Assembly: GCA_040758135.1 (NCBI GenBank)
Contig: JBFLWA010000009.1
Coordinates: 6,755-70,754 of the forward strand
From: Bacillota bacterium
GTDB lineage: Bacteria; Bacillota; Sulfobacillia; JBFLWA01
Reading direction: 5' to 3'
Length of the DNA stretch: 64,000 bases
Position numbers and translations under genes: made by a program
The notes under the pieces: model-generated
Databases searched by the model: none
Told to the model about the DNA's origin: nothing
Seen by the model: the letters and a program-made list of their open reading frames with translations, nothing else
Shown here: positions 35,055 through 35,186 of the stretch, in pieces
How the letters are laid out: each line of letters begins with the position of its first letter
Numbering within the stretch: the first letter of the stretch is position 1

Positions 35055-35186
35055 TCAGAATCCGACATACTGGAAGCCAGAGCCGAAATCGGCCCAGGTC
35101 AATACGGCATAGAGCAAGAGGAAAAGCCAGAAGGCCTCCAGCCACTCTTGCAGGTTGGGGTCGAGACGCTCCCAAAGGGCTCTCAT
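35055..35186 (-). CDS. 43-aa DltX-like membrane peptide MRALWERLDPNLQEWLEAFWLFLLLYAVLTWADFGSGFQYVGF
   Basis: ATG overlaps the ACP stop (ATGA); one hydrophobic helix; C-terminal FQYVGF like DltX FIYNEF; stop directly followed by the RBS of the next gene. Confidence 0.85.
   Translation of the reverse strand: MRALWERLDPNLQEWLEAFWLFLLLYAVLTWADFGSGFQYVGF

Follow-up and report, generated by a model that had tools for sequence, protein, structure and literature searches.

The subject of this analysis is a microprotein of 43 residues and the genes around it in a window of 64,000 nucleotides from the Bacillota bacterium contig JBFLWA010000009.1 (assembly GCA_040758135.1, positions 6,755 to 70,754; GTDB class Sulfobacillia); coordinates are those of this window unless another locus is named. 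The genes are encoded on the minus strand in the order mtaB (37778–39109), an SGNH-type transferase with an N-terminal membrane anchor (36651–37781), a DltB-like membrane-bound O-acyltransferase (MBOAT) of 412 residues (35431–36669), an acyl or peptidyl carrier protein of 83 residues (35183–35434), the microprotein (35055–35186) and an AMP-forming ligase related to acetyl-CoA synthetase (33386–35038). The SGNH protein appears DltD-like in role, the ligase is proposed to load the carrier protein, and the microprotein, which has a single helix, is proposed to be an acyl-tyrosine shuttle.

Translation of 35055–35186 on the minus strand gives MRALWERLDPNLQEWLEAFWLFLLLYAVLTWADFGSGFQYVGF followed by a stop codon. 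The ATG is at 35186–35184, the stop at 35057–35055, and this frame holds no other start-to-stop open reading frame (ORF) there. The TGA of the carrier protein gene (35185–35183) shares four nucleotides with the microprotein start in an ATGA overlap (35183–35186) suggestive of translational coupling, and on the other side a purine-rich, Shine-Dalgarno-like spacer of 16 nucleotides (GGGAGGGGGGAGAGGC, 35039–35054) precedes the ligase ATG at 35038. Apart from this spacer the microprotein ORF occupies the entire gap between the carrier protein and ligase genes. The ORF list puts the ligase start at an earlier ATG (35068), which would amount to an overlap of 14 nucleotides with the microprotein. A scan of 32800–39400 for terminators and promoters gave nothing usable between the genes. 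The peptide has one hydrophobic stretch, approximately residues 15–32 (Kyte-Doolittle 15-residue mean, peak 2.0), then a linker, G35-S36-G37, and the C-terminal hexapeptide F38-Q-Y40-V-G-F43. An initial annotation of the locus had described this ORF as filling the gap, as coupled through ATGA and as carrying one transmembrane helix, a GSG linker and a terminal FQYVGF, and it had noted that the MBOAT ends in ISRLLGIGR without an FIYFQF-type tail; coordinates, translation and hydropathy agree with it on each count, and the MBOAT C-terminus contains no FxYxxF.

Short as it is, the ORF might be untranslated, either a chance frame or a leader that serves only to couple the ligase translationally to the carrier protein. 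The coding statistics argue otherwise. Third-position GC is 0.73, compared with 0.56 over the whole ORF, and lies between 0.79 and 0.86 in the neighbouring genes. The pattern [FW]xYxxF ends one of 1678 window frames (stop-to-stop, at least 20 residues), namely the microprotein, with 0.024 expected from amino-acid frequencies. In 20 related loci it ends 19 of 4457 frames, and these comprise nine microproteins, nine MBOAT C-termini and one unrelated frame in an AT-rich locus. Furthermore, amino-acid identity of 44–64% persists between type-matched loci that differ widely in base composition, and the peptide is retained although its position relative to the carrier gene varies (B-X-C-A, B-C-X-A and others, where B stands for the MBOAT, X for the microprotein, C for the carrier protein and A for the ligase). 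In view of this we give an untranslated frame hardly any credence.

The exact 43-residue sequence is already contained in a large protein collection (one member, four contigs) and in the ESM Atlas, so that gene callers have evidently called it before. The earlier description of the peptide as unannotated therefore holds with respect to family and function, since no Pfam or NCBIfam model matches it, but the expectation that automatic annotation would miss the gene does not. An independent contig (X3) covers the whole stretch of 4396 bases with 12 differences, none of them inside 35055–35186; with about 0.4 differences expected in 132 bases, this comparison is uninformative on selection.

Searching a collection of 5.8 billion proteins with the single sequence returned only the peptide itself. 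Profiles were more productive. With eight peptides, 31 matches were obtained among 1.84 billion representatives (E ≤ 1e-3), and all 31 end in [FW]xYxxF at the last residue. With 25 peptides, at least 3075 proteins were found at E ≤ 0.01 among 8000 scored candidates from the 5.8-billion collection; for the best 120 of these no Pfam domain is precomputed, and ‘hypothetical protein’ is the only name they bear. F38, Y40 and F43 are invariant in eight aligned microproteins. In an alignment of 25, Y40 and F43 remain invariant and position 38 is F or W throughout, so that the proposal that homologous clusters keep both the ORF and its terminal tyrosine was borne out. The microprotein is thus real and conserved, and its tyrosine is invariant. 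Three sequence types can be distinguished by their C-termini: that of the window (DFG[TS]GFQY[VA]GF), an Anaerolineae type (APQWIYQGF), to which most of the 3075 matches belong, and a Pelotomaculum type (SEFIYRAF).

A peptide-led search with a profile of the 10 closest peptides retrieved 11 metagenome loci, two of which (L034 and L035) agree in their figures and are probably duplicate entries of a single sequence. According to tblastn with the window proteins, the carrier gene adjoins the peptide in 10 of the 11 loci, and the ligase, MBOAT and SGNH genes are present in nine, nine and six, respectively. Each missing gene coincides with a contig end, and all six long contigs hold all five genes; the five genes travel together. 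Three arrangements were seen (D denoting the SGNH gene): D-B-X-C-A in L033, L034, L035, L038 and L001, D-B-C-X-A in L039 and the window, and C-X-A convergent with D-B in L041 and L002. In all three the peptide is constantly beside the carrier gene, between the MBOAT and the ligase.

More distant versions differ in composition. In L004 (282–4613) the order is MBOAT, ligase, carrier protein, microprotein (ending FIYERF) and SGNH (B-A-C-X-D), and there the ORF coordinates give the same four-nucleotide overlap between carrier stop and microprotein ATG (3389–3392) as in the window. In the Anaerolineae loci L003 (1927–3510) and L043 (4280–5879) the gene immediately upstream of the MBOAT encodes a microprotein ending in WIYQGF or FIYQGF, and no ligase or carrier gene was found within the DNA examined. 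L043 lies on the plasmid AP024711.1 of the cultured Leptolinea sp. HRD-7, where the microprotein, 47 residues long, is annotated as a hypothetical protein. In Pelotomaculum and relatives (L005–L007) and in L017 and L018, an SGNH-like gene is followed by a short MBOAT and then by a microprotein ending in EFIYRAF, EFVYRQF or EFIYQRF; in the GC-rich L017 and L018 the microprotein forms the last part of a long overlapping frame and is hidden from a simple ORF list.

The placement of the hexapeptide relative to the MBOAT was examined in three sets of loci. An MBOAT search restricted to one genome per species gave 13 loci. Seven of these (L001–L007; MBOAT ORFs of 386–476 residues as called) lack the motif at the MBOAT C-terminus and have a small ORF that bears it, with the endings FQYVGF, FEYSGF, FIYQGF, FIYERF and FIYRAF. 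Five have longer MBOATs (478–539 residues) ending in FIYMVF, FLYFKF, FIYFQF, FIYFDF and FIYYQF, and one ends in LLYARI. Among 40 relatives of the window's genome, six contained an MBOAT at E ≤ 1e-10, which added seven loci: two in which a short MBOAT is joined by a microprotein that is read in an overlapping frame and terminates in EFVYRQF or EFIYQRF, four with MBOATs ending in FIYFRF, FIYFRF, FIYFQF and FLYFQF, and one with FIYEGLNR. Taken together with the window this makes 21 loci, 10 with the motif in trans and 11 with the motif in cis (nine strict, two variant), none with both and none with neither. As called, the trans MBOAT ORFs (the window and nine loci) measure 379–476 residues and the nine strict-cis ones 472–545 residues, one of the latter being cut by a contig end. 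In the peptide-led loci, none of the nine MBOAT C-termini carries the motif.

The third set consisted of the best 30 Pfam MBOAT matches in 200 other genomes of the same class, four of which repeat earlier loci. Here 24 were cis (two of them repeats), four trans and none neither; in two cases the frame runs off the contig. Three of the four trans cases have the microprotein inside the locus, and in the fourth (L073) the peptide lies one gene further on and was seen after extension, so that all 28 assessable loci obey the cis-or-trans rule. The microprotein occurs exactly where the MBOAT has no motif in cis. This agreement between loci supports the view, advanced in the initial annotation, that the tyrosine is supplied in trans, and it suggests a simple rule for annotation: a bacterial MBOAT ends in FxYxxF or has a nearby microprotein that does (21 of 21 and 28 of 28 loci). 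The two deviant tails, LLYARI in L013 (5953–7302) and FIYEGL followed by NR in L022 (150–1610), may mark the limits of the motif.

The partners of the microprotein were compared with known families and structures. The MBOAT matches Pfam MBOAT (PF03062) at 69.9 bits (cut-off 27; E 3e-19) and the NCBIfam DltB model TIGR04091 at 211 bits over positions 24–378 of 380, without reaching the equivalog cut-off of 375; the other cluster MBOATs score 193–239 bits with this model. Its closest solved structures are those of DltB (8jem, 6bug; E ~1e-36). H283 and H330, the latter within GLWHG, are invariant in nine relatives and are presumably the counterparts of the two conserved histidines of DltB. No other MBOAT was found in the genome.

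For the SGNH protein the Pfam matches are weak (AlgX/GDSL), and Pfam DltD (PF04914) matches neither this protein nor anything else in the genome. Alignment of eight cluster partners shows that G98 and S100 (the Gly-x-Ser of block I), N131, G133 and H349 (block V) are invariant, and the protein accordingly has the block I serine, block III asparagine and block V histidine that define the SGNH superfamily. A local match to the SGNH protein 2hsj covers the GDS and DGxH blocks. The best folds in the Protein Data Bank (PDB) for its low-confidence AlphaFold model are those of DltD (3bma, 6o93 and 6pfx; E 2e-5 to 2e-4). The carrier protein has the Asp-Ser attachment motif (LDSFG) and weakly matches DltC models and a D-alanyl carrier protein; it is 41% identical to that of L001, and the motif region is also seen in L001, L002 and L004.

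The ligase gave a different picture. Its best NCBIfam match is the acetate–CoA ligase model PRK04319 (597.8 bits; equivalog cut-off of 729 not reached), and its best solved relative is an acetyl-CoA synthetase (9g79; E 2.3e-133). The alignment with this enzyme, AcsA, is full-length, with conservation of YTSGTTGxPKG, WVTG, VGEP and the lysine of the C-terminal SGKI(L/M)RR. The DltA model, in turn, finds only the cluster ligase in this 96.6%-complete genome, with 47.5 bits against a cut-off of 560. Hence, the cluster ligase is not a DltA. PRK04319 is likewise the best match for the ligases of L001, L002 and L033 (503–574 bits), and the in-cluster orthologues of L001 and L002 share 44% and 39% identity with that of the window. 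Apart from its score below the family cut-off, the window ligase differs from AcsA in the motif TWFQTETG (residues ~334–341; 34018–34041, minus strand), which is also read in L001 and L002, the sequence being TWWMTETG in 9g79 and TWWQTETG in 8rpk. We take the second Trp of the TWW motif to line the acetate pocket of Salmonella Acs, where Phe would enlarge the pocket slightly. TWFQTETG may be the signature of a carrier-protein-loading subfamily or of an altered acyl pocket. A further difference from AcsA lies in the gene context, which points to the carrier protein rather than to CoA as the probable acceptor. With moderate confidence, we expect a small carboxylate as the substrate, acetate being the first guess.

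The relation of the peptide to DltX itself was investigated with the Pfam DltX model (PF12459; gathering threshold 25 bits). It did not match the peptide (E ≤ 1), anything in the whole genome translated in six frames (E ≤ 10) or any of the 31 profile matches (E ≤ 1); in the five genomes containing L001–L004 and L007 nothing exceeded the cut-off, and none of the 81 class genomes around L001 gave a match at E ≤ 1e-4. The model performed as it should on a positive control. A relative of the same class (G157, contig C63; loci L073 and L074) possesses a true dlt operon, unusually arranged as DltD, DltX, DltA, DltB, and the peptide of this operon, ending in FIYQGF, scores 31.9 bits. The other genes of this operon are recognised as well (439 bits with TIGR04091, 233.8 bits with Pfam DltD; the partial DltA matches DltA models best). 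Both a true dlt operon and the Dlt-like system therefore occur in this class. When the peptide and the eight-sequence profile were run against PDB sequences, no DltX chain was retrieved, only chance helices. A likeness was nevertheless detected in profile-profile comparison, in which the 25-microprotein profile aligned with the true DltX (hhalign probability 86%, E 5e-6) over 12 C-terminal columns only, spanning DF..FxYxGF. In the ESM Atlas the fourth-ranking hit (score 0.89; 197 of 256 shared features) was a cluster with 68% PF12459 members, which we regard as a lead and not as evidence.

These data bear on the possibility that the peptide is simply the DltX of a divergent operon for teichoic-acid D-alanylation, with D-alanine as the cargo. 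The five roles do match dltXABCD one for one, the MBOAT is closest to DltB both by family and by solved structures, the SGNH model folds best onto DltD, the carrier protein weakly resembles DltC, a D-Ala-D-Ala ligase gene (Ddl) is found at 31953–33065 and a same-class relative has a true dlt operon. The scores point the other way. In the relative's operon the DltB, DltX and DltD models all pass, but in the window the MBOAT stays at 211 bits, the DltX and DltD models fail, and the ligase prefers PRK04319 by 597.8 to 47.5 bits. The Acs-like ligase is, moreover, kept in the cluster in L001, L002, L033 and others, and Ddl is a housekeeping gene that did not turn up downstream in any other locus examined. 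We therefore consider D-alanylation improbable here. The cluster is Dlt-like but not Dlt. It has the division of labour and the protein superfamilies of the DltB-DltC-DltA-DltD machinery, and its four partner proteins fall below or fail the curated Dlt thresholds.

For the peptide the comparison runs in the same way. Like DltX, it is about 40–50 residues long, has one transmembrane helix and FxYxxF at its very end, and is encoded together with a DltB-type MBOAT devoid of a tail, a carrier protein, an adenylating ligase and a membrane-anchored SGNH protein. Unlike DltX, it is encoded between the carrier and ligase genes and does not head the operon, and its partner ligase is Acs-like and not a DltA, which makes D-alanine an improbable cargo. 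Architecture and context suggest that the peptide works like DltX, outside the recognised DltX family. The designation ‘DltX-type’ in the initial annotation consequently stands for architecture and probable mechanism and has to be given up for family membership.

As to mechanism, PMC12148441 describes how D-Ala is transferred by DltB from DltC onto the invariant tyrosine of the C-terminal FXYXXF of DltX, which passes it to the DltD serine, and how PatA auto-acetylates the same tyrosine in its own tail, from where the acetyl group goes to PatB. The tails of PatA/AlgI-type MBOATs (FIYFQF-like), treated in that paper, have in common with the peptide the hexapeptide, the invariant tyrosine and the location at the extreme C-terminus behind a membrane helix; they differ in that the motif is part of the MBOAT chain, that the donor is acyl-CoA and that there is no carrier protein, whereas in the window the motif is a separate gene with carrier protein and ligase alongside. 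Since the same hexapeptide is found here, an acyl role may be assigned to Tyr40 by analogy.

We propose that the microprotein is an acyl-tyrosine shuttle acting in trans between the DltB-like MBOAT and the SGNH transferase and carrying a short-chain acyl group other than D-alanine, a reading that by analogy with these systems we regard as probable. The Acs-like ligase would adenylate a small carboxylic acid and load it onto the phosphopantetheine arm of the 83-residue carrier protein, from which the MBOAT would take the acyl group at the cytoplasmic face. By way of its conserved histidine (His330, GLWHG) the MBOAT would then transfer it to Tyr40, the C-terminal hexapeptide being supposedly located at the outer face behind the transmembrane helix and the GSG linker. 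The acyl-tyrosine would finally be handed to the catalytic serine of the SGNH protein (Ser100, with His349), and this enzyme would esterify an envelope polymer.

A small subunit of the MBOAT, or of an MBOAT-SGNH complex, that serves assembly, stability or gating and whose tyrosine is never acylated has to be considered as well, single-helix small subunits of membrane enzymes being common. A complex prediction of MBOAT and peptide, which bears on binding only, and weakly, would suit such a subunit too. It gave a score of 0.49 (runs 0.49, 0.50 and 0.44) against 0.01 for the best of three controls, with a contact agreement between runs of at least 81% and a partner pLDDT of at least 72, and was returned with the verdict ‘weak support’. 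In calibration, 58 of 80 solved complexes attained the mark, as did 2 of 110 mismatched pairs; only seven of those 80 attained it with scores of 0.60 or less, a range that includes both passing mismatches. The alignments supplied were our own, so that these calibration counts hold only roughly, and solved DltB structures may explain the pass. What speaks against such a subunit is the place of conservation. The conservation is in the last six residues and not in the helix, with the tyrosine kept in 25 of 25 sequences and the [FW]xYxxF ending in 31 of 31 database matches, and MBOATs without a separate peptide end in the same hexapeptide. According to PMC12148441, this tyrosine is the acylated residue in DltX and PatA. 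We hold a non-acylated subunit to be unlikely, if somewhat less so than D-alanylation.

Several points weigh against the acyl-tyrosine shuttle proposed above. BLASTP of the peptide against the true DltX is not significant (E 0.71) and PF12459 fails, for which reason homology beyond the motif of six to twelve residues is unproven. The complex prediction lends the weak support just mentioned (0.49). The SGNH model is of low confidence (mean pLDDT 64.1) and matches the DltD folds at a TM-score of only ~0.43, and the carrier protein meets Pfam PP-binding (PF00550) exactly at the cut-off, 20.8 bits, with no margin. The ligase is the sole Acs-like gene found in the 96.6%-complete genome and might also, or instead, be the ordinary Acs of the cell. 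Finally, no ligase or carrier gene was found in the DNA examined near the microproteins of L003, L005–L007, L017 and L018; from a peptide in trans alone, a carrier-protein donor cannot be deduced.

The adenylating enzyme is not of one kind throughout. It is Acs-like in the window and at least 12 other loci and DltA in true Dlt systems, and in L004 it resembles fatty acyl-AMP ligases, its best matches being the long-chain-fatty-acid–CoA ligase PRK07768 (310 bits) and the fatty acyl-AMP ligase PRK09192 (298 bits). This difference in kind suggests that the adenylating enzyme is an exchangeable part. The peptide could then belong to a large unnamed family of DltX-like shuttles that marks modular, carrier-protein-dependent systems for envelope acylation with swapped adenylating enzymes, the Dlt architecture being reused for the attachment of different acyl groups to polymers of the cell surface; we put the chances of this at about even. 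If true, it would contradict the statement in PMC12148441 that in MBOAT/SGNH pathways other than Dlt both carrier protein and DltX-like microprotein are missing.

The acyl-tyrosine shuttle is a recent finding, made for DltX and the PatA tail. That a separately encoded shuttle peptide and carrier protein occur in this cluster and its relatives with a ligase that is not DltA argues that the trans arrangement is not peculiar to D-alanylation. Thousands of such peptides are nameless hypothetical proteins in metagenome data and are missed by the Pfam DltX model. In the literature searched, which left most subscription journals outside its scope, we found no account of such a peptide outside Dlt. 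The peptide is probably a DltX-like shuttle acting in trans, unrecognised by the DltX model and part of a conserved five-gene Dlt-like system with an Acs-like ligase. It may lead to a so far unknown acylation of the envelope with short-chain groups in anaerobes that have been little studied, and the system offers a tractable test of the generality of the shuttle.

The remaining genes near the cluster vary between loci. Immediately downstream of the ligase, a PKD-domain protein of ~400 residues is encoded in L033 (8659–9888), L034 (8563–9786) and L039 (8059–9246), and an FMN-dependent alpha-hydroxy-acid dehydrogenase in L001 (9497–10519) and L038 (6754–7785). In the window, the Ddl gene (minus strand; Pfam Dala_Dala_lig_C, E 1e-79) begins ~320 nucleotides downstream of the ligase. 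None of these three is conserved at this position, and they were rejected as parts of the system, Ddl in particular since no such gene follows in the other loci examined; the PKD-domain protein or the dehydrogenase could still hint at the acceptor or the acyl substrate. An ORF of 83 residues between ligase and Ddl (33092–33343, minus strand) has no family and an Arg/Gly/Pro-rich translation and was taken as non-coding. Further on, a protein with LysM and DUF2935 is encoded on the opposite strand (30946–31956, plus). In L001, the SGNH gene and the MBOAT are separated by a DUF6036/AbiEii-type nucleotidyltransferase gene and a small ORF (5049–5979), and the SGNH gene itself has an AbiEi/AbiEii pair upstream (1740–3262). 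Upstream of the cluster in the window (37778–41960, minus strand) are dnaJ, prmA, a 16S rRNA methyltransferase (Methyltrans_RNA) and mtaB, a housekeeping order that we take to be typical of Firmicutes-like genomes.

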